Positions 1-42,987 of a stretch of 47,737 nt of DNA are shown here, piece by piece. Every line of letters begins with the position of its first letter. Position 1 is the stretch's first letter. The translations under genes were made by a program, and so were the position numbers. Source of the stretch: a virus (taxonomy: Duplodnaviria > Heunggongvirae > Uroviricota > Caudoviricetes); IMG/VR virus record IMGVR_UViG_2541047873_000005. One strand, written 5' to 3'. Below the pieces are notes generated by a model. It made no database searches. It saw only the letters and a program-made list of their open reading frames with translations, and had not been told where the DNA came from.

Positions 1-1284
1 TTACAGACTTCTTGAAGGTTGCGCAGCTGTTACAACACGCGGTTGATCTTCCGCGGCATCTTCCAGTGCACTTAAATCACGGTCTCTCACTTCTGGCATT
101 TTCAGCGCAGAGATTAAACCAATCACTGAATATGCCATGATCATAATGGCGATCGGATACCAGGATTCCGTCATGGTGCAGAAAATACCCGCCAGGATAG
201 GACCAAAACCGGAAGCGATAAGACCACCAATTTCTTTAGAAATCGCCATCCGGGTAAAGCGGTTTTTACAGCCGAACATTTCTGCCATGGTAATGTTTTC
301 CAGAGCAAATAATCCCAGCACCGCACAGTTATGAATCACAATCAGTGCAACCATAATGGTGCTCGGGGCATAGCTTTTATCTACGATGATAGAAAGCATT
401 GGCCACGCCAGCACAATCGCAGAGGTATTCATAATAATATACGGGATCCGGCGACCTATTTTATCGGATAACCAACCAAGGAACGGAATGGTCATAAAGC
501 CGAGAATCGAACTGATCATCAATGCATCTGTTGGAATTGCTTTGTTAAACAATAACGTCTGCACTAAATAGCCTGCAAGGAAAGTCTGAATTAAACCGGA
601 GTTACCAGCCTGACCAAAACGCAGCCCTGTTGCCAGCCAGAAGGATTTGCTCTGGAACATGCTACCAGCAGGTGCAGGTTTTGCTGTCGGTTGGTTGCTG
701 TCGTTAACCTTCTCAAAGACCGGGCTTTCTTTCAGATTCATACGCAACCAGATAGCAAAGACCATCACGACAACGCTCGCCAGGAACGGTATACGCCATC
801 CCCACGCAAGCAGTTCCTCTTTACTGAGAATGAAGAACATAAAGGCCCAGATTGCCGTTGCGCTCAAGGTTCCGCAGTTAGTCCCCATAGCAACAAATGA
901 GGAGATAATTCCGCGCTTACCTTTTGGTGCATATTCCGCCAGCATCGTGCCGGCACCGGAAATTTCCGCGCCTGCCCCCAGCCCCTGAATAATACGCAGC
1001 GTCACCAGCAAAATTGGCGCAAACACACCAATTTGTGCATAGGTCGGCAGCACACCAATTAAGGTAGTACAGATCCCCATCATAGTGATGGTAATAAAGA
1101 GCACTTTTTTACGCCCGATTCTGTCGCCCATTTTGCCGAAAATAAATGCTCCGACAATACGCGCCACATAACCTGCACCGTAGGTTCCCATTGCCAGAAT
1201 TAACGCCATTGCCGTTGATGATTCAGGAAAAAATATTTCATGAAACACTAACGCTGCGCCGAGCGAATATAACTGGAAATCCAT
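1..1284 (-). CDS. ydfJ: MFS family metabolite/H+ symporter (YdfJ-like), apparently 5'-truncated at the prophage junction
   Basis: 427-aa ORF with MFS signature GxLxDRxGRKK and multiple hydrophobic helices; aligns to ShiA/KgtP-type transporters from about residue 30; in-frame stop two codons upstream of the ATG. Confidence 0.75.
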   Translation of the reverse strand: MDFQLYSLGAALVFHEIFFPESSTAMALILAMGTYGAGYVARIVGAFIFGKMGDRIGRKKVLFITITMMGICTTLIGVLPTYAQIGVFAPILLVTLRIIQGLGAGAEISGAGTMLAEYAPKGKRGIISSFVAMGTNCGTLSATAIWAFMFFILSKEELLAWGWRIPFLASVVVMVFAIWLRMNLKESPVFEKVNDSNQPTAKPAPAGSMFQSKSFWLATGLRFGQAGNSGLIQTFLAGYLVQTLLFNKAIPTDALMISSILGFMTIPFLGWLSDKIGRRIPYIIMNTSAIVLAWPMLSIIVDKSYAPSTIMVALIVIHNCAVLGLFALENITMAEMFGCKNRFTRMAISKEIGGLIASGFGPILAGIFCTMTESWYPIAIMIMAYSVIGLISALKMPEVRDRDLSALEDAAEDQPRVVTAAQPSRSL

Positions 1285-2069
1285 AATTCACAGGTGTTTT
1301 TTCCCATCCTGTGGTTTCCTTGGCGTTTTCTAGGTTTTTTCAGATAGTTGCATTTTTTAAAAAGCATCCTAAGTTCGATCTCAGTGTCTATCTGGGGCCT
1401 ATTTCTGTCCCATATATGCCCCAAAAAAACTCCCCAACAGATAAGTAGTTTTTTCATGGATTTATGCGTAAAATCAAGAACGGCTGGAAATCATTCAATA
1501 CTCACACTATCGAAAAATTTACCAGCCAACCGCAGCACGTTCTTGCATAAGGCGTGTCTGCGGTTTTTCAACTATTCAGATACATCACTCCCATCACATT
1601 CATTCCTCCGCATCAAAGGCATATAGGCTATATCACCTTGATATTTTTCTTCTTCAGATAAAAACTGTTATCTATGTATACTTTTAAACCCAATCCGTGT
1701 AGAGTCTCTGCATAAGATAGTTTGCAGTTGCCGCTTCAGCTTGCGCCATAAACCGCCTGATTTTTGCTGCCACCTGTTAGCATTCCTGTATACCTGAAAC
1801 GACAATGTTTATCTACGAACTTTAAGAACACCCAAGATAAAAATTGTCAACTATATCATATATAACACATTACTAATTCGAGGCTATATGAACAGCATAC
1901 TGATAATCACTTCTCTCCTTATCATATTCAGCATTTTTAGTCATGCCCTAATAAAATTAGGGATTGGCATATCCAATAACCCAGACAAAACCGATGTATA
2001 AGCCAACATATCCTGAATCAGACATACAATATCGCAATGAAAATCAATAATATTTTAAGGAATATCTTC

Positions 2070-2303
2070 ATGAAATCAAAAGACACCCTAAAGTGGTTCC
2101 CTGCGCAGCTTCCTGAAGTAAGAATTATCCTAGGGGATGCTGTAGTGGAAGTAGCAAAACAGGGAAGACCTATCAATACCAGAACATTGCTTGATTACAT
2201 TGAAGGAAACATAAAGAAAAAATCATGGCTGGATAACAAAGAATTATTACAAACAGCGATATCAGTTCTTAAAGACAACCAAAATTTAAATGGTAAAATG
2301 TAA
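2070..2303 (+). CDS. ydfK: Prophage protein YdfK (cold-shock-induced, DUF)
   Basis: 77-aa product MKSKDTLKWFPAQLPEVRIILGD... matches recalled K-12 YdfK; AAGGA RBS 10 nt upstream of internal ATG (ORF track start 2037). Confidence 0.7.
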   Translation: MKSKDTLKWFPAQLPEVRIILGDAVVEVAKQGRPINTRTLLDYIEGNIKKKSWLDNKELLQTAISVLKDNQNLNGKM

Positions 2304-2619
2304 TATAATAAACTTACTTTTTTATCATTTTTCCACTTTAACAACATTTTGCTCCACTTTTCCACGACCAAACAACTTGAAATCTGGTTAAAATAACACG
2401 CAACACTATTCTTCTTCCTTGAGTCCGCCCGGAACTCGAAAAACAAACCGAGTTAAAGCCATTTTTCACAAAATCGATTTTGGGTCTCACCAAAATTACG
2501 GGGTTGCATACGCATTCGTTTATTTTCGAACGTGTACATACAAATATGTACAAAAATAATCAAAATTATTTTCTGAGATGCATTATGATATGAACACCAA
2601 TTTCGTATAGAATCTCACT

Positions 2620-3210
2620 ATGTCTCGAATTTTTGCTTACTGTCGGATATCAACGCTGGATCAGACCACCGAAAATCAACGCCGGGAAATCGAAAGTGCA
2701 GGTTTTAAAATCAAACCTCAGCAAATAATCGAAGAACACATTAGCGGCTCAGCAGCAACCAGTGAGCGTCCTGGTTTTAACCGGTTGCTTGCTCGCCTGA
2801 AATGTGGTGATCAATTGATTGTGACAAAACTGGATCGCCTTGGTTGTAATGCAATGGATATCAGGAAAACAGTGGAACAACTGACCGAAACAGGTATCAG
2901 AGTGCATTGCTTAGCATTGGGGGGCATTGACCTGACCAGTCCAACAGGAAAAATGATGATGCAAGTAATTTCAGCAGTCGCTGAATTTGAACGAGACCTT
3001 TTACTTGAACGCACTCATTCCGGGATAGTAAGAGCCCGCGGCGCAGGGAAACGTTTTGGTCGACCACCTGTGTTAAATGAAGAACAGAAACAGGTGGTAT
3101 TCGAACGAATTAAGTCAGGTGTAAGTATAAGTGCCATTGCCCGGGAATTCAAAACCTCGCGGCAAACCATTTTAAGAGCCAAAGCAAAACTTCAGACACC
3201 TGACATATAA
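2620..3210 (+). CDS. pin: Serine recombinase, Pin/resolvase-invertase family
   Basis: 196 aa; N-terminal catalytic motif YCRISTLDQ (Ser nucleophile) and C-terminal HTH; lies next to tail fibre genes as pin does in e14/Qin. Confidence 0.8.
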
Positions 3211-3307
3211 AAAATAATCTCGGTGTGAGATGCTTTACGTCTTCCAAGCCCCCTTCCTTGCCGTAAATGGAAAGATACATCTAATTATAGAATTTATATG
3301 TTTTACC

Positions 3308-3883
3308 CTACGGCAGTGCTGGCCATTCAATATCCTGTGCAGTTGACGTATCAACACGGTTCAGCAATACCCGATACTTTTTCCATGCTTCCAGCAACGA
3401 GATTTCTTCCTCCGTTGCAATTTCCAGATCTGCAGCATCCTGAAGCGGCGCAATATGCTCACTGGCTACCTGCATCAGGTTGTTTTTTGTTTCTTCCGCC
3501 TCCCGGATCCGGAACAGTTTTTCTGCTTCCGTATCCTTCACCCAGGCTGTGCCGTTCCACTTCTGAAACTCCCCTTCCGGGGATAACCAGGTGACATTTT
3601 CCGGTAATGGGCCAAGTTCAGAAATAAATAACGCGTCGCCGGAAGCCACGTCATAGACGGTTTTACCCCGATGATCTTCAACGAGATGCCACGATGCCTC
3701 ATCACTGTTGAAAACAGCCACGAAGCCAGCCGGAATATCTGGCGGTGCAATATCGGTACTGTTTGCTGGCAGACCTGTATGAGGCGGAATATATGCGTCA
3801 CCTTCACCAATAAATTCATTAGTTCCTGCCAGCAGATTATAAATTTTTATGGTCCGTGGTTGTTCACTCATTCTGAATGCCAT
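3308..3883 (-). CDS. tfa: Tail fibre assembly protein Tfa
   Basis: N-terminus [20 protein letters not shown] matches lambda Tfa along its length; ATG overlaps the stf stop (TAATG). Confidence 0.85.
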
Positions 3884-6798
3884 TATGCAAGCCTCACAAT
3901 GTAGTTAAATGCGATGTTTTTGACAGTGTTTTCCGCGTTACCAGCAGCGTTAACGGTGATGGTGTGTCCATGTGAGCCAATCGCAACAGAGTGCGTATGA
4001 GCACCAATACCGACAGTATGTGCGTGAGCACCTGCAGATGCAGCTGTGCCGCTGACACTATGAGTGTGCGCTCCTGCAGCACTTGTATTCACACTGGCCG
4101 CAGACACTACCTTATGTACTGACCCATTTTGTGACCACTGGCTGACTGCTGATGCGCCTGTGACACTATGAGTATGGTTTCCGGCACTTGCGGCTGTACC
4201 GCTCACACTGTGCGTATGCGCCCCGGTGTTATTCGTGGATTTAGTGCCGTAATCAAACGACGATGTGGTTTTCGTCCCCAAATCCGTACTGGATGCACTG
4301 GCGCTGTGGGTGTGCGATTTAATGCCGTCCTGTTCCTGAGACAATACGGCCCGACCACTGGCAGGTTTGCCCTTAATCGTCCAGCCACGCATATCAGGGA
4401 TCACGCCTGACGGATAAGCGGTTGCAAGTTTCGGGTAAGCGGATTTGTCAAAAGTCTGCCCCTGCATCAGGGCATAACCAGACGGAACGGTATCTGATGG
4501 CCACGGGATTGGTGCGCCAGGCGGATAAAACTGCTCTGATGGCGTATAGAGTGAATAAACTGTACCGTCCGTTAACCCTTCCGGCTTATTAGCAGAATAT
4601 GCTGGTGACGTATGAATAGTCACGCTGGCATTACTGGTATAATCCCATTGAATATTTACACCAGTCGCATAATTTCCGATTGCAACGTAAATATCGTAAG
4701 TATCACCAGATGTATTGACCCAGGCAAAATTTGTAAACCCTGTCGATGTGCGCTGCCATAAAGCACCAGTAATCCCCTTCGGATTACCATTACCTGCACG
4801 CAAAACAAGTTCAGATATACCTGCCTGTTGAGGTGACCCCACGTTAAATCCCGCGCCACCAATCAACGTAATTGAAACAACAGAACTCGCCTGTGGCATG
4901 GTTACCGTTGCTAATTTGAACCAACCAGCACCACCGCTGAATGACATTGTTGTTGAGTTAAGCGTACCAATATCTTTCGGCGTCAGTGTTATATCCGCTG
5001 AAAGCGCCTTACCATTCACCTTACGGGCAGAAGGTACCCGACCATTCGCATTATCATTAGCTGCTTTCACTGCTTTCGGTGTCGCGGCAAGCGTTTCAGA
5101 TGCGCTGTTGGTTGCACTACTGAGCTGGACAATTCCTTTTTGTGCTGTCGTAGCGTCCTGAGCAGTATATTTCCCGTTAGCAAGGTCATAGGCTGCCTTT
5201 ACCGACTTTGGCGTTGCCGCCAGCATTTCAGATGTGCTGTTGGTCGCGCTGCTGAGCTGAACTATCCCTTTTTGTGCTGTCGTTGCATCCTGTGCGGTGT
5301 ATTTCCCGTTAGCCAGCTCATACGCGGCCTTAACGGCTTTTGGCGTTGCCGCCAGTGACTCGGAAGTGCTGTTAGTCGCACTGCTGAGCTGTACTATCCC
5401 CTTTTTCGTCGTGCTCGCATCCTCAAGCGCCACGGCGGATGCAATATCCTCTGCCCGTTTTGCCGCTGTCTCGGCGCGCGTTGCCGCGGATTCCGCCGTA
5501 CTTTTGCTCTGAGCTGCCGCCGTCGCACTGCCAGCTGCCTCTGTCGCCTTCGTGGATGCCGTCGTGGCGCTGCCCTTTGCTGCTGACGCCTGTCTGGTCG
5601 CCTCATCTTTTGAAGCAGACGCAGATGATGCCGATGACGCCGCCGAACTGGCGGACGATGCGGCAGCCGTTTTTGAGGATTCTGCGCTGGTTTCCGACGC
5701 TTTCGCGTTCGTCTCGGATGTCTTCGCTGCGGAAGCAGACCTCGCTGCTGCGCTGGCCTGTTCAGTGGCTTCGCCAGCCTTCGTTGTGGCTGTTGAAGCG
5801 GACGATGCGGCGCTTTCTGCCGATTTTCCGGCAGCGGTGGCACTGGCTGAGGCCTGCCCGGCACTTGTTGACGCGGCACTGGCAGACGACGCAGCCGCTG
5901 TTTTTGAGCCTGCCGCAGCTGAGGCGCTCTGTCCCGCTGCCGTCTCAGAAGACCTGGCGTTCGTCTCGGACGTTTTTGCCGCCTTCGCGGAATTTGCTGC
6001 CGCCGTTGCCGAGGAAGCTGCGCTACTGGCGCTCGAGGATGCGTTCGTTTCTGATGATTTTGCCGCCTCTTTTGAAGCCGACGCATCCCGGGCTGAGGTG
6101 GCAGCTTCTGACGCTTTCGTGGTCGCGGTGGATGCAGAAGTGGCGGCTGATTGTTGTGACGCTGCAGCATTCGTTTCTGACGTTTTCGCGGCAGCGGCAC
6201 TGGTAGCTGCCGCGCTTTTTGAGGACTCTGCAGCGGCAGCACTTTTTTCCGCTTCAGTGGCCTTTGTTGATGCCGTTCCTGCGCTGGAAGACGCTGACTG
6301 AGCCGACGAAGCGGCCTGTCCGGCTGACGTGCTGGCTGCACGTGCTGAATCTGCAGCATCAGTCGCATGGGTTGCCGCCTCACGGGCAGATGTGCCGGCA
6401 TCACTGGCTGACTTCTTCGCGGCTGCCGTGTTCTGTGCCACCACGGACGCGTTACGCGCCACCTCTTCCACCATCTGTTCAAAACGGCGCAGTGCCTCCG
6501 GACGGGCATCATCCTCCGTCATGGCACCGAGAAAATCATTCAGCGTACCGGGTTGAGAATCTTCATACACGGTGATGGTCCCGGCATGTGACGGCGGGAA
6601 TCCTTCCACCAACAGAATAACGCTGTACTGCCCGTACTCAACGTCCATGCTGTAACGCCCGGCTTCATCCGGATTTTCTGAGGCCAGCGTGTTCACCACC
6701 ACCGTGGTGCTGTTACGTTTTGCTTTCAGCTGGATTGTGCAGTTCTGTACCGGTTTTCCTGTGCCGTCTTTCAGTACACCTGAAATCTTTACTGCCAT
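3883..6798 (-). CDS. stf: Side tail fibre protein Stf
   Basis: [27 protein letters not shown]-terminus and [23 protein letters not shown]-terminus as in lambda Stf; Ala/Ser/Thr-rich middle, three 40-aa tandem repeats, His-rich GAHTHS C-terminal repeats; ATG at 6798 (track ORF begins at alternative start 6804). Confidence 0.85.
5040..5410 (-). repeat. Three tandem ~120-bp repeats inside stf encoding [28 protein letters not shown](E/D)[15 protein letters not shown]
   Basis: Near-identical DNA units seen directly at about 5100, 5220 and 5340; coordinates approximate. Confidence 0.7.
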
Positions 6799-6805
6799 AT
6801 TCACC

Positions 6806-6836
6806 CCACAAAAAAGCCCGCCTGAACCGGCGGGCT
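6806..6836 (-). terminator. Rho-independent terminator between lom and stf
   Basis: Hairpin GCCCGCC-tgaacc-GGCGGGC followed by U-run on the minus-strand transcript. Confidence 0.5.
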
Positions 6837-6862
6837 GTCATAACACTGTGTTACCTGGCTAA

Positions 6863-7462
6863 TCAGAACTTATAACCGACACCCACGATGAAACCGTCAG
6901 TGCGCCAGTCGCCACTGCCGGAGCCTTCATAAGCAATATCAATGGCCACGGATTCGGTCGGGTTAAACTGCACGCCAGCTCCCCACGCCAGAGACGTGTT
7001 GCTGTGGCGACCGTCATCACTTCCGGTCAGCACGTCGTGCGTTTTCCCCTTGTTGTCAGTTACGCGGAGATAATCCCCGGAGAAAGTCGACACACGGCTG
7101 TAAGCCATACCCGCCATCGCATACGCGCTGAACCATTCATTCACGCGCACAGACGGCCCCACCATCACGCTGAACCAGCGGTTACGCACGGAATCTTCAT
7201 GCCAGCGGGTATCGCTGTAACGGGTAAGCTGGCGATTCTTGTCTCCTGCATAGCTGAATGACGTCACCAGCCCCAGTGTGTCCGTAAACTCATAACGGTA
7301 TTTCACGTTAATCCCGTTCAGATCATCACTGCCGGGAACGTTCGTCCGGGCATGAAGATACCCCGCGCTCAGCGTGGACTGATGTTCAGACGCCCATGCA
7401 GGCGCACCGGATACGGCCAGACAAATGGCTGCGGACAAAATGGCGGCATAAAGTTTACGCAT
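6863..7462 (-). CDS. lom: Outer membrane protein Lom (Ail/Lom family moron)
   Basis: 199 aa with signal peptide; C-terminus [23 protein letters not shown] matches lambda Lom; RBS AGGTAATT-ATG. Confidence 0.85.
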
Positions 7463-7483
7463 AATTACCTCTCGCTTTTCTGC

Positions 7484-7511
7484 AATAAAAAAGGCGTCAT
7501 TTCTGACGCCC
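7484..7511 (-). terminator. Rho-independent terminator downstream of J, upstream of lom
   Basis: Hairpin GGCGTCA-gaaa-TGACGCC followed by U6 on the minus strand. Confidence 0.5.
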
Positions 7512-7528
7512 GTTCTGGGTTATAAAAT

Positions 7529-10930
<3,402 letters not shown>

Positions 10931-28054: not shown

Positions 28055-28325
28055 GATGTTACCGTAGTATGTGAGTATCCATCGAATAGATACCAAGCAA
28101 AAAAGCTCCCGAAGGAGCCTTCATTTTCACTTTTTTAAATCCAACGACAGACGGCTGGCATTTAAGTATTGTGAAATATTATCAAATGTAATCATCATTG
28201 ATTTACAAAAGATACATTTTGCCCCGAAAGGATTCATGTCAGAAACATCAAAAGATGATGTTCTATACTGGGAACCATGACAACACGGGCATCTAAAGTG
28301 AATATGGTTTGTAATATTGTCTACC

Positions 28326-28538
28326 TCAAAGCGCCACTACATGAACAGCGGCAGGACCTTTAGGTCCGTTCTCAATACCAAATTCAACTTCCTGATTCTC
28401 AGTTAATGTTTTGAAATCGTTGCTCTGAATTGCTGAGAAATGGACAAACACATCTTTGCTGCCATCTTTCGGCGTGATGAAACCAAAACCTTTTTCAGGG
28501 TTAAACCATTTCACTAAACCAGTCATTTTGTTAGACAT
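28326..28538 (-). CDS. cspI: Cold shock protein CspI
   Basis: 70 aa [70 protein letters not shown]; RNP1/RNP2 cold-shock domain motifs. Confidence 0.9.
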
Positions 28539-28901
28539 AATTATTACCTTTTGAAGAAATTAGCCCTTGGGCAGAATGGTCCGAAAAAAAATATCAGAGA
28601 GAAAAACCAACAAGGAAATCTCAAGAGGTACAAATAATAAAATTATAACAATGACTGCTTCAGATAAATTTGTAACAAACCAGAACACCATTAACGCATG
28701 ATTAACCACCCATAGCAAGGATTACTTTTGTAAAGAAAAACACAGCAATGAAAGAATAGCTTTATTTATTAATAATAACGTGTCATTCTGATTAAGACCT
28801 TTTATCTTACCCTTAAGATTTCAGGAATTTTGGCTCATGGAAGAGTCCTTTTTATTTAAATTTTACATTCCGCGATGTAAATGTTCCGATTTAATATTAC
28901 C

Positions 28902-30929: not shown

Positions 30930-31210
30930 GAGATTGTGGTGCTTTTTGTGGGAGTCATCCACTTACGCACTTTGTTTTGCCATGCCAGCAGTTAGCTTCT
31001 GCTGTAAAACTATTCATGCAGCAAACCTGCACTTCACCACAATGGTTAGCATACTTTTCCTGATTAAGATTTTGCCAAATATGCTAGCCATTGTTTCATG
31101 TATTGGACCTCCTTACTTTTTATTAAAGAGATCCAATATTCACTACTCTGTCCGTATCTCTACTCAGGCATCAGCCTTCTTCGTTATCGTATACAGACGA
31201 GCGATGAATT

Positions 31211-31426
31211 TTAATCAGTAATGATGACATTTGCTGCTGCAGGACCTTTAGCACCACTCTCTATAGAGAAGGTAACCTTTTGACCTTCAAATAAGGTTCG
31301 ATAATTATCATTCTGAATCGCAGAAAAATGCACAAACACATCTTTACTACCATCAACAGGAGAAATAAAGCCGAAACCTTTATCAGCGTTAAACCATTTT
31401 ACTAAACCAGTCATTTTATTTGACAT
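31211..31426 (-). CDS. cspB: Cold shock protein CspB
   Basis: 71 aa [71 protein letters not shown]. Confidence 0.9.
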
Positions 31427-31726
31427 TCTACATTCCTTAACTTGAGCCTTTCGGCATAAATGGTTTGCATAACAGAAACGACTTCGTACTTAATTGGAGA
31501 GACTCAAAGAAGGAATAAGTGAATAACACCTGAAATGAGAACTGCTTTAGTAAACTACTTCGTATATCGTCTGTTCTTCAAACCGACGCAATCATTAACG
31601 CATAGTTGAACATATGAAGCAATGTTTATTTTAGACATCCAGCCATCTTCAACCCCATCAAAAAACTATAGCTTTCTTCAGGAACGTGTGTATAGTGCGC
31701 CAAGTTATCAGTATTAAGGAATTTTT

Positions 31727-34990: not shown

Positions 34991-35146
34991 TTACTCCTCA
35001 GGTTCGTAAGCTGTGAAGACAGCGACCTCCGTCTGGCCGGTTCGGATTCGTACCTCGCAGAGGTCTTTCCTCGTTACCAGTGCCGTCACTATGACGGTTA
35101 AACAGATGACGATCAGGGCGATTAACATCGCCTTTTGCTGCTTCAT
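34991..35146 (-). CDS. hokD: Hok-family membrane toxin HokD (RelF)
   Basis: 51 aa MKQQKAMLIALIVICLTVIVTALVTRKDLCEVRIRTGQTEVAVFTAYEPEE matches HokD; track ORF 34991..35203 carries an in-frame upstream extension. Confidence 0.9.
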   Translation of the reverse strand: MKQQKAMLIALIVICLTVIVTALVTRKDLCEVRIRTGQTEVAVFTAYEPEE

Positions 35147-35935
35147 AGCCTGCTTCTCCTTGCCTTTCGGCTCGTAAGAGGCTAACCTACATGTGTCTAG
35201 CATGAAATTGGCCTCAGATTAATGTTAAGCGTCTTGCAGGACGCGTAATGTTAACTGGGGCTTTTCTCTATCTGCCTTTGGTGTTCATGCCCGAGGCAGA
35301 TAGCCTCAAGCACCCGCAGCCATTCTACTTAACTACCGTTACCTCGCCAATATGAAATCAGTCAGAAAGGCGATCCATAAGAACAATAGCAAGACAATAA
35401 ATCGCCATTACAGCCGTAATAGCCAGCGCACATTTGAGAACCAGCACCACAACCTCCTGTATTGGACGTAGACCAGTCCTGATGAATATGAGGCTGTCTC
35501 GTCAGTGATTCAATACAACTATTGGGTATAGTTTCTCTGATTTTTTCTGTGGAAATGGGGCACAACCACTAGTCACCACCAGCACTTCTTTTAATACGCA
35601 AAGTCCGACACAAGCTAACCTTCTAGTCCGCTTTGAGCGAAAAACAGCCATAATTTAGTGCCACGTATATAATGATAGAGCTATTCAAGCTAGCAATTCA
35701 CATGTAAAAATTCAGAGGGTAGAAGCACATAGTTATAAATGTTGGCTCCATCGACAAATTGCGGTCTCAAGTACATTTATTAATGTTGCCCCCGCATTAA
35801 CAAATCATCAAGGTGACGACATGGACGATATTAATATCAGCCTCGACGAACTTAACACTATTGATTTATCCCCCTTAATCCTGAACCGCCCCGGGAATCC
35901 TGGAGACTAAACTTCCTGAGAAAGAGGTAAACAGG

Positions 35936-36262
35936 ATGACTAAAAATACTCGTTTTTCCCCCGAAGTCCGTCAACGGGCAGTCCGTATGGTTCTGGAAAG
36001 TCAGAGCGAATATGACTCACAATGGGCGACAATTTGTTCCATTGCTCCAAAGATTGGCTGTACGCCGGAGACTCTGCGTGTCTGGGTTCGCCAGCATGAG
36101 CGGGATACCGGGGGCGGTGATGGAGGGCTCACCACCGCTGAACGTCAGCGTCTGAAAGAGCTGGAACGTGAAAATCGTGAACTGCGCCGCAGTAACGATA
36201 TCCTTCGCCAGGCTTCCGCTTATTTTGCGAAGGCGGAGTTCGACCGCCTCTGGAAAAAATGA
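35936..36262 (+). CDS. IS629 transposase OrfA (HTH)
   Basis: 108 aa [37 protein letters not shown]...; ends next to an A6 run usable for -1 frameshift into orfB. Confidence 0.9.
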
Positions 36263-37149
36263 TGCCACTGCTGGATAAGCTGCGTGAGCAGTACGGGGTC
36301 GGACCGCTATGCAGCGAACTGCATATTGCCCCGTCAACGTATTACCACTGTCAGCAACAGCGACATCATCCGGATAAACGCAGTGCCCGTGCGCAGCGCG
36401 ATGACTGGCTGAAGAAAGAGATACAGCGCGTATACGATGAAAATCACAAGGTATACGGTGTGCGTAAAGTCTGGCGTCAGTTGTTACGGGAAGGTATCAG
36501 AGTGGCCAGATGCACTGTGGCACGTCTCATGGCGGTTATGGGACTTGCCGGTGTTCTCCGGGGTAAAAAGGTCCGTACGACCATCAGCCGGAAAGCCGTT
36601 GCCGCAGGCGACCGCGTAAACCGTCAGTTCGTGGCAGAACGACCTGACCAGCTGTGGGTGGCTGATTTTACTTACGTCAGCACATGGCGGGGCTTCGTCT
36701 ATGTGGCGTTCATCATTGATGTGTTTGCCGGATACATCGTGGGGTGGCGGGTCTCATCGTCCATGGAAACGACATTCGTGCTGGATGCACTGGAGCAGGC
36801 GTTATGGGCCCGTCGACCGTCCGGCACGGTCCATCACAGTGATAAAGGTTCTCAGTATGTATCGCTGGCCTACACACAGCGGCTTAAGGAAGCCGGATTA
36901 CTGGCATCAACAGGAAGTACAGGCGACTCGTATGACAACGCGATGGCGGAGAGCATCAATGGTCTTTACAAAGCGGAGGTAATACACCGTAAGAGCTGGA
37001 AAAACCGTGCAGAAGTGGAACTGGCCACACTCACGTGGGTGGACTGGTATAACAATCGACGATTGCTGGAAAGGCTGGGCCATACTCCTCCGGCAGAAGC
37101 AGAAAAAGCTTATTATGCTTCCATCGGAAACGATGATCTGGCAGCCTGA
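36259..37149 (+). CDS. IS629 transposase OrfB (DDE integrase core)
   Basis: 296 aa, -1 frame overlap with orfA; DDE motifs (WVADFTY..., HSDKGSQY..., DNAMAES). Confidence 0.9.
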
Positions 37150-37385: not shown

Positions 37386-38921
37386 TTGTCGCTGGAGGTA
37401 CTTTCTCAATTTTGCCCGACGATAGAGCTACCCGAACTTCAAGCTCGTATTGCTGATACACTTTGGGTTCGTAAAATTGGTGGAATCCGTTTTCCTTTGC
37501 TGGCAGTCCGTGCTTATTATGCGTCCAGTATAGCTATTATGACATCGCAAGGGACGTGGGTTAGTGCTTTAGAACGCCTAGAGCGTGCGCTTAGGCTGTG
37601 TTGTTTTTTTCGAAAGAATACTGATTTCAGGGATGAATTTGATCAGCTTTCGGCACATCTACTAGCAGAGTATGAACGTACCAGAGAACAAGGCGATTCA
37701 CCTTATCCGCTGCGACTCCTGCAACTCGATATCGACTGTAAAGTGAGTGAGCCATCTTTTATTGCCCAGGAACTCCTGTTTCTGACAAAAAACTATCTGG
37801 CTCAAAAATTATTTTCATTTGCCGTCGATGCCTGTAAAACCGCAATCACGATTGCGAATAGGTGCTGTGACAGAGATACACAGTTTGAATTCTGGCGGCT
37901 TCTTGCCGATACACATCTGGAAGAGTCAAAATTCCAAGATGGCGGTATGATTTCGGCAGCCTGCATGCAGAATGCTATTGAAGCACTGGCTAATATTCCA
38001 GGAACCCGAATAGAACGTCTTGCGCTGTATGAAGAAATGCGTGATTACCAAATCGAATCCCGTCACCAGATGTCTATCCTTCAGTCTCCCCCTCAAGATA
38101 TTAGTGAGATTGTCCATCAAGCCAAGAGTCGGGTAGTCGGAAGAGATATGTTTGATATGGTTTTCAGACTTGCGATGCTGGTCTGTCGGCCAACCAGCAT
38201 TGAGAGACTTAAGGCTCAAGCAATAGAACAAAAGGCCAACAGCATAGCTTGGATGTTTGGATCAACACATATTGATCATGAGGGAATGACACTTGCTCGC
38301 ATACCCGCAGGATTGGGGATTGATGATGCAAATGGGGCAGTTATTTGGCCCATAATGATGACGAGAATGCGTATCGACCATGAGTTGGCAGTAGCTGGGC
38401 AAATTATTCCTGCTACAGATGAGATCACAATGAAATATCCAATCTCGGAGGCGTTTTTTCGCGATATGTTCATCAATCATCCCTTCATCCCGTTTGGGCA
38501 TGAAGAGTTTTTCATCAAGGGTATGGTTTGCGGTTTCAATGGAGATTTTATGACGGCATGCCACGTGTTGATTCCCCAGATCGAAAATAGTCTGAGATAT
38601 GTGGCTAAAATTAAAGGTGAGGAACCATCGCAGCTTCACGGGGACGGTTCGCAAGAGCGAAATGGACTCAAGGGATTACTAGATAATCCACTGATTATTG
38701 AAGCTTTCGGCGTAGACATAATTGGCAATCTTCAGGCCTTACTGGTAGATAAAATCTATGGTGATTTACGAAATCAACTAGCTCACGGATATGTGCCTGC
38801 CGGTTACTACAATCAACCTCCCTGCATTTTTGCATGGTGGCTTGTATTGCACATTCTAATGAACCCTACGGCGAGATACTGGCAAGCCACTTATGGCCAA
38901 GAGAGTGAGGCTCAGACTTAA
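37386..38921 (+). CDS. 3' fragment (511 codons) of the IS629-disrupted gene
   Basis: Track ORF from TTG at 37386; contains DLRNQLAHGY near the C-terminus (about 38768..38785). Confidence 0.5.
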   Translation: MSLEVLSQFCPTIELPELQARIADTLWVRKIGGIRFPLLAVRAYYASSIAIMTSQGTWVSALERLERALRLCCFFRKNTDFRDEFDQLSAHLLAEYERTREQGDSPYPLRLLQLDIDCKVSEPSFIAQELLFLTKNYLAQKLFSFAVDACKTAITIANRCCDRDTQFEFWRLLADTHLEESKFQDGGMISAACMQNAIEALANIPGTRIERLALYEEMRDYQIESRHQMSILQSPPQDISEIVHQAKSRVVGRDMFDMVFRLAMLVCRPTSIERLKAQAIEQKANSIAWMFGSTHIDHEGMTLARIPAGLGIDDANGAVIWPIMMTRMRIDHELAVAGQIIPATDEITMKYPISEAFFRDMFINHPFIPFGHEEFFIKGMVCGFNGDFMTACHVLIPQIENSLRYVAKIKGEEPSQLHGDGSQERNGLKGLLDNPLIIEAFGVDIIGNLQALLVDKIYGDLRNQLAHGYVPAGYYNQPPCIFAWWLVLHILMNPTARYWQATYGQESEAQT

Positions 38922-42094: not shown

Positions 42095-42670
42095 ATGGAT
42101 TTCGACACAATCATGGAAAAGGCTTACGAAGAATACTTCGAAGGCCTTGCCGAAGGCGAAGAAGCTCTCAGCTTCAGTGAGTTTAAACAGGCACTCAGAA
42201 TAAGAATGCGCTCTCACAATGACGCGGAGCACAAATATGAGAAGCAAAATCAGACCGCAGAAAATTTTGTTCTGGAACCCGGAGAAACGCTTTTCAAAAT
42301 TCCCGTTACGTGCCCCATTTGCGGTTTTACATCAGAAGAACTTGACGACTCCTGTAACAATCAGGAAACAACCAAGTATGTCGAAGATGATACCGAGTGC
42401 GCACGAAGAACGATTATATCCACGAGTCCAAACTCCAGGACCAATAAATCTCACTTTGAGAGGGTGATTAATCCACTCCCCCAAACCAATAAAAAAGATG
42501 CCGGAGGACAAAAAAACCAATGGAACAACGGGATATCTGTCAAAAAAAGACGTTCCATTAAAGACAAACAACGCAGCGCCAACAACTGTAAGCGCTTTAT
42601 ACCAGTAATCAATTTTCATGTTCTTAAGCGGATTTATTGGTGGTTGCGACATTGCTTAATGAATCCTTAA
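42095..42670 (+). CDS. YdfB/YdfC-like protein (single ORF here)
   Basis: Starts MDFDTIMEKAYEEYFEGLAEGEEALSFSEFKQAL (YdfB-like) and continues to a basic C-terminus; start taken just after ydfA. Confidence 0.5.
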   Translation: MDFDTIMEKAYEEYFEGLAEGEEALSFSEFKQALRIRMRSHNDAEHKYEKQNQTAENFVLEPGETLFKIPVTCPICGFTSEELDDSCNNQETTKYVEDDTECARRTIISTSPNSRTNKSHFERVINPLPQTNKKDAGGQKNQWNNGISVKKRRSIKDKQRSANNCKRFIPVINFHVLKRIYWWLRHCLMNP

Positions 42671-42928: not shown

Positions 42929-42987
42929 TTTTCTGGTGACGTTTGGCGGTATCAGTTTTACTCCGTGACTGCTCTGCCGCCGTTTTT
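42929..42987 (+). ncRNA. dicF: DicF small RNA (ftsZ-targeting, Hfq-dependent) with intrinsic terminator
   Basis: TTTCTGGTGACGTTTGGCGGTATCAGTTTTACTCCGTGACTGCTCTGCCGCC followed by T5 matches the recalled DicF sequence; located between ydfC and dicB. Confidence 0.85.

Follow-up and report, generated by a model that had tools for sequence, protein, structure and literature searches.

Introduction

The DNA invertases of the Din family (Gin, Cin, Pin and Hin) are small serine recombinases that share about 60-70% identity with one another. As a family they are further marked by paired, inverted 26-bp crossover sites by the recombinase gene and by an invertible segment bearing alternative tail-fibre C-termini and opposed tfa genes. 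A further family trait is a Fis-dependent recombinational enhancer near the 5' end of the recombinase coding sequence. In the res-resolvase systems of Tn3 and gamma-delta, the resolvase couples a catalytic domain to an HTH_7 domain, a res site of three subsites lies upstream of the resolvase gene tnpR, the transposase gene tnpA is divergent from tnpR, and the element is bounded by 38-bp GGGG...TAAG terminal repeats and a 5-bp target duplication; the crossover site of a Tn3-type res is the subsite furthest from the gene, and the promoter lies inside the site. The present analysis concerns a serine recombinase gene, pinQ, in a stretch of tailed-phage DNA of 47,737 nucleotides (nt; IMG/VR record IMGVR_UViG_2541047873_000005), which in its entirety is referred to here as the window. 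An original prediction made from this DNA had noted a recombinase beside the tail-fibre genes tfa and stf, and had seen in this the arrangement of fibre-switching invertases such as Gin, Cin and Pin.

The recombinase is indeed present at this position. Its open reading frame (ORF; 2620-3210, plus strand) encodes a protein of 196 amino acids (aa) that matches Pfam Resolvase (PF00239, 2.5e-36) and HTH_7 (PF02796, 3.8e-11), and it converges on tfa (tfaQ; 3308-3883, minus strand) and stf (3883-6804, minus strand; 973 aa), a gene pair spanning 3308-6804 in which the Pfam domains Caudo_TAP (in tfaQ), phage_tail_N, Phage_fiber_2 and Collar were recognized. Many complete E. coli genomes match the DNA at 1285-3400 with 100% identity; in them, the RefSeq annotation lists ynfT, ydfK, pinQ (the RefSeq name adopted here) and tfaQ by an N-terminally truncated ydfJ. 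The pinQ annotation recurs across thousands of RefSeq E. coli genomes, and the region was matched in 5,381 of 5,426 E. coli genomes. The prophage is a lambdoid one of the Qin type with its insertion in ydfJ, and the locus is its pinQ.

The pinQ gene, its orphan status and its trans-acting phenotype are already known. What appears to be unreported is the ancestry of the gene in a transposon and the replacement of a catalytic arginine by cysteine in its product; an incomplete literature search found no link of pinQ or pinR to Tn3. By the tests applied here, PinQ lies outside the Din family, and by descent it belongs to a Tn3-family resolvase module. We conclude that pinQ is very probably the res and tnpR module of a Tn3-family transposon, now decayed, that was inserted beside the tail-fibre genes, and that it does not support local inversion.

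Kinship of PinQ with Tn3-family resolvases

PinQ has several traits in common with the Din invertases Gin, Cin, PinE and Hin: these are small serine recombinases of a size like that of PinQ, they occupy a tail-fibre neighbourhood, and Gin is the best match of PinQ in the PDB (105 bits), its score against the gamma-delta resolvase being lower (82 bits). PinQ is nevertheless only 38% identical to PinE, far from the identity that holds among the Din invertases themselves, and it differs from them in its recognition helix and in the company of its nearest relatives, which adjoin transposases or plasmid partition genes. To a plasmid-borne TnpR of the Tn3 family, PinQ is 84% identical. Neither PADLOC nor NCBIfam returned a specific family for PinQ.

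Relatives at 57-84% protein identity are encoded as the divergent partner of a Tn3 transposase in Shewanella, on a Citrobacter plasmid and on E. coli plasmids, while other relatives adjoin the partition genes. The divergent neighbour in Shewanella is a Tn3 transposase of 1,033 aa (DDE_Tnp_Tn3, 1.4e-148), and the element is bounded by 38-bp repeats GGGGTCCGCTTGGAAAACGGAAAATATCCTACGCTAAG. The E. coli plasmid element that encodes the 84%-identical TnpR (e.g. CP012500.1) is an unnamed transposon of 3,815 bp with perfect 38-bp repeats, a 994-aa Tn3 transposase, six good res half-sites and the catalytic arginine; the window element has none of these, although the terminal repeats of the two belong to the same family. 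At the DNA level, window positions 2540-3249 align with this transposon at 83% identity over 712 nt (BLASTN). The alignment takes in res sites II and III, the gene and, behind its stop codon, a spacer of 8 nt in both elements, and it continues into the right terminal repeat.

The upstream regions of these relatives have the layout of a Tn3-type res site, as judged by analogy. Six TGT[AC]CGAAA half-sites, always in the same places, lie within the 120 bp before the gene in ten relatives. Relative to the ATG, site I (-115 / -98) is a 26-bp inverted pair, site II (-75 / -52) is a 32-bp inverted pair, a -10 box of the sequence TATAAT lies at about -40, and site III (-34 / -21) consists of two half-sites in direct orientation. 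The features listed above for the Tn3 and gamma-delta systems all recur in the PinQ clade, with two variations: site I measures 26 bp in the clade as against 28 in Tn3 and gamma-delta, and the half-sites of clade site III are in direct orientation.

Three other loci were noted. One E. coli prophage allele of pinQ (GCA_910593615.1; locus L118, 4790-5700) is 100% identical to the plasmid transposon from the middle of res through the first 504 nt of the gene (codon 168), a tract that restores Arg76 together with half-site II-R and site III, within flanks of the prophage type. The allele looks like the product of gene conversion between the plasmid transposon and the prophage, and the identity of the tract indicates that prophage and transposon still exchange sequence. 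Erwinia oleae (locus L015, 1268-2652) has two divergent PinQ-like recombinase genes, and the nine TGT[AC]CGAAA half-sites in the interval seem to form a back-to-back pair of res-like arrays. In Budvicia aquatica (locus L020, ~5880-5940), a copy of the same Tn3-family terminal repeat (GGGGTCCGCTTGGAAAGCGGAAAATATCCTACGCTAAG) precedes a 5'-truncated PinQ-like gene by ~80 bp, which suggests insertion of a transposon end in or close to a res/resolvase locus.

Transposon ends and a target duplication around pinQ

The element in the window spans 2420-3253 (834 bp) and comprises, in order, a terminal repeat, res, tnpR and a second terminal repeat, with no transposase gene. The 38-bp repeat of the plasmid transposon (GGGGTCCGCTTGGAAAACGGAAAATATCCCACGCTAAG) was scanned across both strands of the entire window, and its two best matches flank pinQ with their outer ends pointing outward, an arrangement whose joint chance is ~1e-9; the matches that follow score 23, 21 and 21. 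The best match is the right repeat relic, with 25/38 identities ungapped (3219-3256, minus strand). When a 3-nt deletion is allowed for, the right relic occupies 3219-3253 (minus strand) with its outer end CCCC at 3250-3253, and 27/35 positions agree, as counted by hand from the alignments. The left relic (2420-2457, plus strand) is the second-best match, with 24/38 identities ungapped; it begins TGAG where the intact repeat has GGGG, and a match of this quality would arise by chance within 200 positions with a probability of ~1e-4. The terminal inverted repeats of a Tn3 module (38 bp, GGGG...ACGCTAAG) are in this way present on both sides of pinQ, as relics.

Directly outside the two relics lie identical copies of TTCCT, at 2415-2419 on the left and at 3254-3258 on the right. 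The left copy is also found in K-12, and 5 bp is the size of the target-site duplication made by Tn3-family elements. Because the repeat relics and the 5-bp duplication flank pinQ, the position of the gene by tfa is to be read as an insertion site and not as an invertase module, and tfaQ and stf are neighbours of pinQ that lie outside any recombination module. The placement of the locus among the Gin/Cin/Pin arrangements in the original prediction is contradicted by these ends, as it is by the much closer kinship of the protein with TnpR than with PinE.

A remnant of tnpA was sought by tblastn of two TnpA proteins against the window, and nothing was found below E = 0.68. The window element is non-autonomous. 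Terminal repeats of the Tn3 family without a transposase are also seen in non-autonomous Tn3 derivatives (TIMEs and similar elements; PMC4133298, PMC13367494). Unlike these, the window element retains res and tnpR; its mobilization appears unlikely, the repeats being too decayed.

Decay of the res site

The region upstream of pinQ aligns without gaps to the res sites of the relatives, so that each of the six half-sites can be located and scored by position weight matrix (PWM). Site I, the 26-bp crossover site of the intact relatives, falls at 2507-2532 (plus strand), where ten relatives have TGACCGAAA-N8-TTTCGTACA. Its left half-site, I-L (CATACGCAT, 2507-2515), has a PWM score of 0.8 and its right half-site, I-R (TTTCGAACG, 2524-2532), one of 8.1. 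Site II (2547-2578, plus strand), which lies within the 83%-identity alignment to the plasmid transposon res, consists of II-L (TGTACAAAA, 2547-2555; 10.7) and II-R (TTTTCTGAG, 2570-2578; 2.9). The -10 box TATGAT (2584-2589) and the decayed site III (2588-2609), placed by the same alignment at 2584-2609 on the plus strand, complete the array, with III-L (ATATGAACA, 2588-2596) scoring 1.3 and III-R (TTTCGTATA, 2601-2609) scoring 11.5. The -10 box is kept as TATGAT or TATAAT in 11 of 12 aligned sequences.

Three of the six half-sites, one per subsite, still score well, and no further half-site cluster was found anywhere in the window. The res of the window is a relic and not a working site. One other allele (locus L009) has a better I-L, CATCCGAAT. 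A gapped pairwise alignment had placed site I at 2484-2509, a position that was rejected since in the L009 allele CATCCGAAT...TTTCGAACG is preserved where the ungapped alignment puts the site.

The PinQ protein: a replaced catalytic residue

The catalytic residue set of Tn3-family resolvases (Y6, R8, S10, D36, R68 and R71 in Tn3 numbering) is incomplete in PinQ. Five positions align, of which that of D36 is occupied by Glu throughout the PinQ clade, and R71 is replaced by Cys76, which HMMER aligns with the Arg that ends the KLDRLGR motif of Gin and of the gamma-delta and Tn3 resolvases. In the 71 viral loci that were translated the motif is DRLGC without exception; among the nearest 120 protein clusters, 112 have DRLGR, and DRLGC is confined to the prophage PinQ/PinR clusters. 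Substitution of this residue in the Tn3 resolvase (R71A, R71K) abolished recombination and lowered single-strand cleavage ~1000-fold (PMC2794168); nothing on the corresponding residue (R69) was found in a Hin paper. By extension from the Tn3 resolvase, the strand-exchange activity of PinQ is probably much reduced. Taken with the decay of res and the lack of a transposase, the PinQ module is without three features of a working Tn3 module: transposase, intact res and full set of catalytic residues.

The recognition helix of PinQ is nearly the same as that of the plasmid TnpR (TTRQTILRVR), and because it is nearly unchanged, PinQ is likely still to bind the family half-site. The ratio of non-synonymous to synonymous substitution rates (dN/dS) is 0.37 between two Cys76 alleles and 0.15 in comparison with the transposon gene, values that indicate a constraint on pinQ that is relaxed but not absent.

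Action of PinQ in trans on the e14 P segment

The original prediction had left room for the recombinase to be an orphan or to act in trans, and a trans-acting role has been reported for the K-12 protein. Overproduction of K-12 PinQ led to inversion of the 1,797-bp P segment in another prophage, e14, the inverted fraction rising from 30% to 88%; survivors of phage T2 carried the inversion, the effect required e14, stfP and stfE, and T2 induced pinQ/pinR 14-fold (Kirigo et al., NAR 2025; PMC12529663). The authors interpret these results as the work of a fully active invertase that itself cuts and rejoins the e14 pix sites and so switches StfE/StfP chimeras in defence against T2. The window protein is 2 residues from K-12 PinQ. 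There is, moreover, some likeness between the sites: site I of the PinQ clade, 26 bp long and with an inner AAACC motif, is reminiscent of pix, hix and gix, and it agrees with the pix half-sites at ~8/12 positions.

Other observations weaken the case for direct catalysis. The likeness to pix is obtained only with a 1-bp shift from the crossover centre and falls to ~5.5/13 in register, and the recognition helix of PinQ is unlike that of PinE. Cys76 replaces a residue that is essential for recombination by the Tn3 resolvase. Further, inversion amounted to 1.5% in delta-pinE, 22% in delta-pinQ and 30% in the wild type, figures from which it follows that PinE does nearly all native inversion, and the strains listed in the same table include none in which PinQ was overproduced in a delta-pinE background (Table S4 of PMC12529663). 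For the source strain of the window, the presence of e14 is not readable from the window itself. We regard the published trans action on the e14 P segment as plausible and the evidence for direct catalysis by PinQ as incomplete; that PinQ is a fully active invertase in trans is a serious possibility, but one to which we give somewhat less than even weight.

A different account of the same phenotype would treat PinQ and PinR as domesticated TnpR relics that have impaired catalysis and are kept by selection as DNA-binding proteins and not as recombinases, which might bias or assist the PinE-catalysed inversion of the e14 P segment or might occupy the res of incoming Tn3-family transposons and plasmids that share the half-site. 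We offer this proposal as a speculative one, rather unlikely as it stands; were it true, the published phenotype of DNA inversion by PinQ would be indirect.

Weighing the transposon relic

Under the reading of pinQ as a decayed transposon module, a Tn3-family transposon would have inserted between ydfK and tfa in an ancestral phage and duplicated TTCCT. The element has no transposase gene, and its terminal repeats and res have decayed. PinQ would retain the DNA-binding helix of its transposon relatives and, by analogy with the autoregulation of Tn3 resolvase, would probably bind the surviving half-sites around its own promoter and -10 box; autoregulation of this kind, like the reduction in catalysis, we infer from the Tn3 system. 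Any role of PinQ in recombination would be exercised only in trans.

Several points weigh against this account. An empty site, in which the flanks are joined across one TTCCT, was found neither in the 5,426 E. coli genomes nor in the phage collection, IMG/VR or metagenomes, and for this reason the insertion is deduced from the ends alone. No tnpA remnant was detected by tblastn; the transposase gene may have been lost before or after the insertion. The left repeat relic is weak when taken by itself. The effect of a cysteine at position 76 is carried over from the Tn3 resolvase. Moreover, the pinQ ORF is intact in 71/71 translated viral loci, a poor fit to a pure relic, and this, together with the dN/dS of 0.37, makes the protein appear to be maintained. 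Finally, the inversion of 88% of P segments upon PinQ overproduction argues for retained activity, unless it came about via PinE (PMC12529663).

Two palindromes within the decayed res

The original prediction had also drawn attention to a perfect palindrome with 8-nt arms and a 4-nt loop, put at 70 bp upstream of the gene. It is present as described: TGTACATAcaaaTATGTACA, that is TGTACATA-caaa-TATGTACA, occupies 2533-2552, leaving 67 bases before the ATG at 2620. The window contains no second copy of it, even with 3 mismatches allowed. Its left arm lies within the 14-bp spacer between res sites I and II and its right arm overlaps half-site II-L, and because the half-site core TGTACA is self-complementary, two copies of it 8 bp apart read as an 8-4-8 palindrome. 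The palindrome is in effect the site I/II spacer plus half-site II-L of a decayed res; it serves neither as a crossover site nor as a terminator. Abutting it at 2553-2572 is another perfect 8-4-8 palindrome, AAAATAATcaaaATTATTTT, whose centre coincides exactly with the dyad of decayed res site II. The arms of this second palindrome are kept in most E. coli alleles while the loop varies, and it is absent from the L009-type allele.

As a fallback, it had been suggested that the first palindrome might be an operator or a terminator. Such an element, unrelated to recombination and serving some regulator or the termination of ydfK, would be compatible with the perfect 8-bp arms and with a position in the ydfK-pinQ interval, a short way upstream of the conserved -10 box. 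However, a perfect 8-bp-arm palindrome is unremarkable in itself because the window has 14 of them at loop lengths of 0-8 nt, compared with 5.5 +/- 2.3 in shuffles, and such palindromes are expected by chance. Among the 66 IMG/VR loci with enough upstream sequence, none has the perfect form: 44 have TGTACATACAAATATGCACA, as does K-12, 11 have TATACATACAAATATGTACA and the other 11 have various imperfect forms, the two arms varying independently. Perfection of the palindrome is specific to the window allele. Of the short segments around pinQ that were compared, the one formed by the left repeat and res shows the lowest conservation (median identity 98.6%, as against 99.7% for pinQ). For a terminator in particular, the hairpin formed as RNA has an energy of -7.1 kcal/mol and no T-run, no terminator was called at the palindrome, and Rfam gave no match at its position. 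Of the two suggestions the operator comes nearer, given that the palindrome lies in a decayed res and that its right arm overlaps a resolvase half-site, so that a partial operator function for PinQ itself is plausible; an operator for some other regulator, or a ydfK terminator, we consider distinctly unlikely.

Absence of partner sites and of local inversion

That no second inversion site and no alternative fibre cassette could be seen in the original prediction was borne out by systematic searches. Inverted 26-mers shared between 2300-3400 and 3301-7000 reached at best 19/26, a score attained by 13 of 30 shuffles, and an inverted-repeat search over 1285-7600 likewise remained at chance level. 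No pix-, gix- or hix-type site was found in the window: the Din consensus TTCTCNNAAACCNNGGTTTNNGAGAA (two 26-bp sites, TTCTCNNAAACC NN GGTTTNNGAGAA) has no window match at up to 3 mismatches, and the e14 pix arm has a single, chance-level match at 42474. A single stf and a single tfa are present in the window, with no alternative fibre cassette, and the orientation of pinQ relative to tfaQ/stf is identical in 89 of 89 loci compared, all of which are collinear. In K-12, too, PinQ was described as having no adjacent invertible segment, and BLAST revealed no inversions in Qin or rac (PMC12529663). Given that the only res is decayed, that a partner site is lacking and that all 89 loci are collinear, there is no recombination or inversion at the pinQ locus.

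These results contradict the proposal that pinQ is a fibre-switching invertase of the Gin/Cin/Pin type whose local segment or second site has diverged too far or was recently lost, a proposal for which one could cite the adjacency of the recombinase to tfa/stf, the better match to Gin than to the gamma-delta resolvase, and the palindrome ~70 bp upstream, comparable in position to pixR 55 bp upstream of pinE; the low identity to PinE and the transposon ends and target duplication that bracket pinQ also stand against it, and we consider it very improbable. Equally hard to credit is a working resolvase that would act on its own upstream res, for instance to resolve phage or prophage multimers, since, resolvase descent and a res-like upstream region notwithstanding, each subsite retains one good half-site with the left arm of site I lost, the protein has Cys76, and each prophage carries a single res relic with no second half-site cluster in the window.

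The prophage context of pinQ

PinQ and PinR are encoded by the cryptic prophages Qin and Rac of E. coli K-12, and the window shares with K-12 Qin both the gene and the context ydfJ'-ynfT-ydfK-pinQ-tfaQ; the near-identical sequence in a ydfK/ynaE - pin - tfa context that marks PinQ/PinR members is present. K-12 PinQ differs from the window protein by R3Q and V159A, and K-12 Qin has the same repeat relics and the same TTCCT duplication. Two differences set the window apart: the palindrome is perfect in the window allele where K-12 has TATGCACA, and the window has the prophage at full length, stf, lom and J among its complete genes, while K-12 Qin is truncated. Window positions 1-1284 (minus strand) encode ydfJ, a major facilitator superfamily transporter, without its N-terminus, placing the junction between prophage and chromosome at ~1285; the integrase lies at the far end of the prophage.

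Several other features of this prophage were recorded. Two cspA-type thermoregulator leaders (28299-28684 and 31195-31587, both minus strand), a sok antitoxin RNA (35141-35315, minus strand) and DicF (42931-42982, plus strand) belong to the usual Qin complement, here in a full-length prophage. An otherwise near-identical prophage in E. coli 118UI has an IS200C transposase between stf and lom (locus L001, 14635-15093), an insertion that the window lacks. The 3' half of tfaQ, on the coding strand, gives a full-length match to the Rfam family IS009 (3342-3540, minus strand; 220.9 bits against a gathering score of 117). A protein of 511 aa encoded at 37386-38921 (plus strand) contains DUF7380 and DUF4209 and gives a hit to PDC-S39, a candidate defence family of PADLOC (5.9e-95), from profile position 91 onward. 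Directly upstream of it is an IS3-type insertion (35936-37149) with an rve integrase ORF (36259-37149) and an ALIL frameshift pseudoknot (36217-36333), and this insertion may have truncated the PDC-S39-like protein.

Implications

Most E. coli genomes contain pinQ and pinR, genes that go by the name of invertases and that a recent study put forward as the first phage defence to be activated by a recombinase. Should the two be relics of transposon resolvases without the catalytic arginine, there is no fibre switch to be sought at the pinQ locus, the annotation 'DNA invertase from lambdoid prophage' that has been propagated in some databases is misleading, and the published mechanism needs one simple control. 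More broadly, the case of pinQ shows how lambdoid phages can fix a transposon module at their tail-fibre end, where it rides along as a passenger gene.

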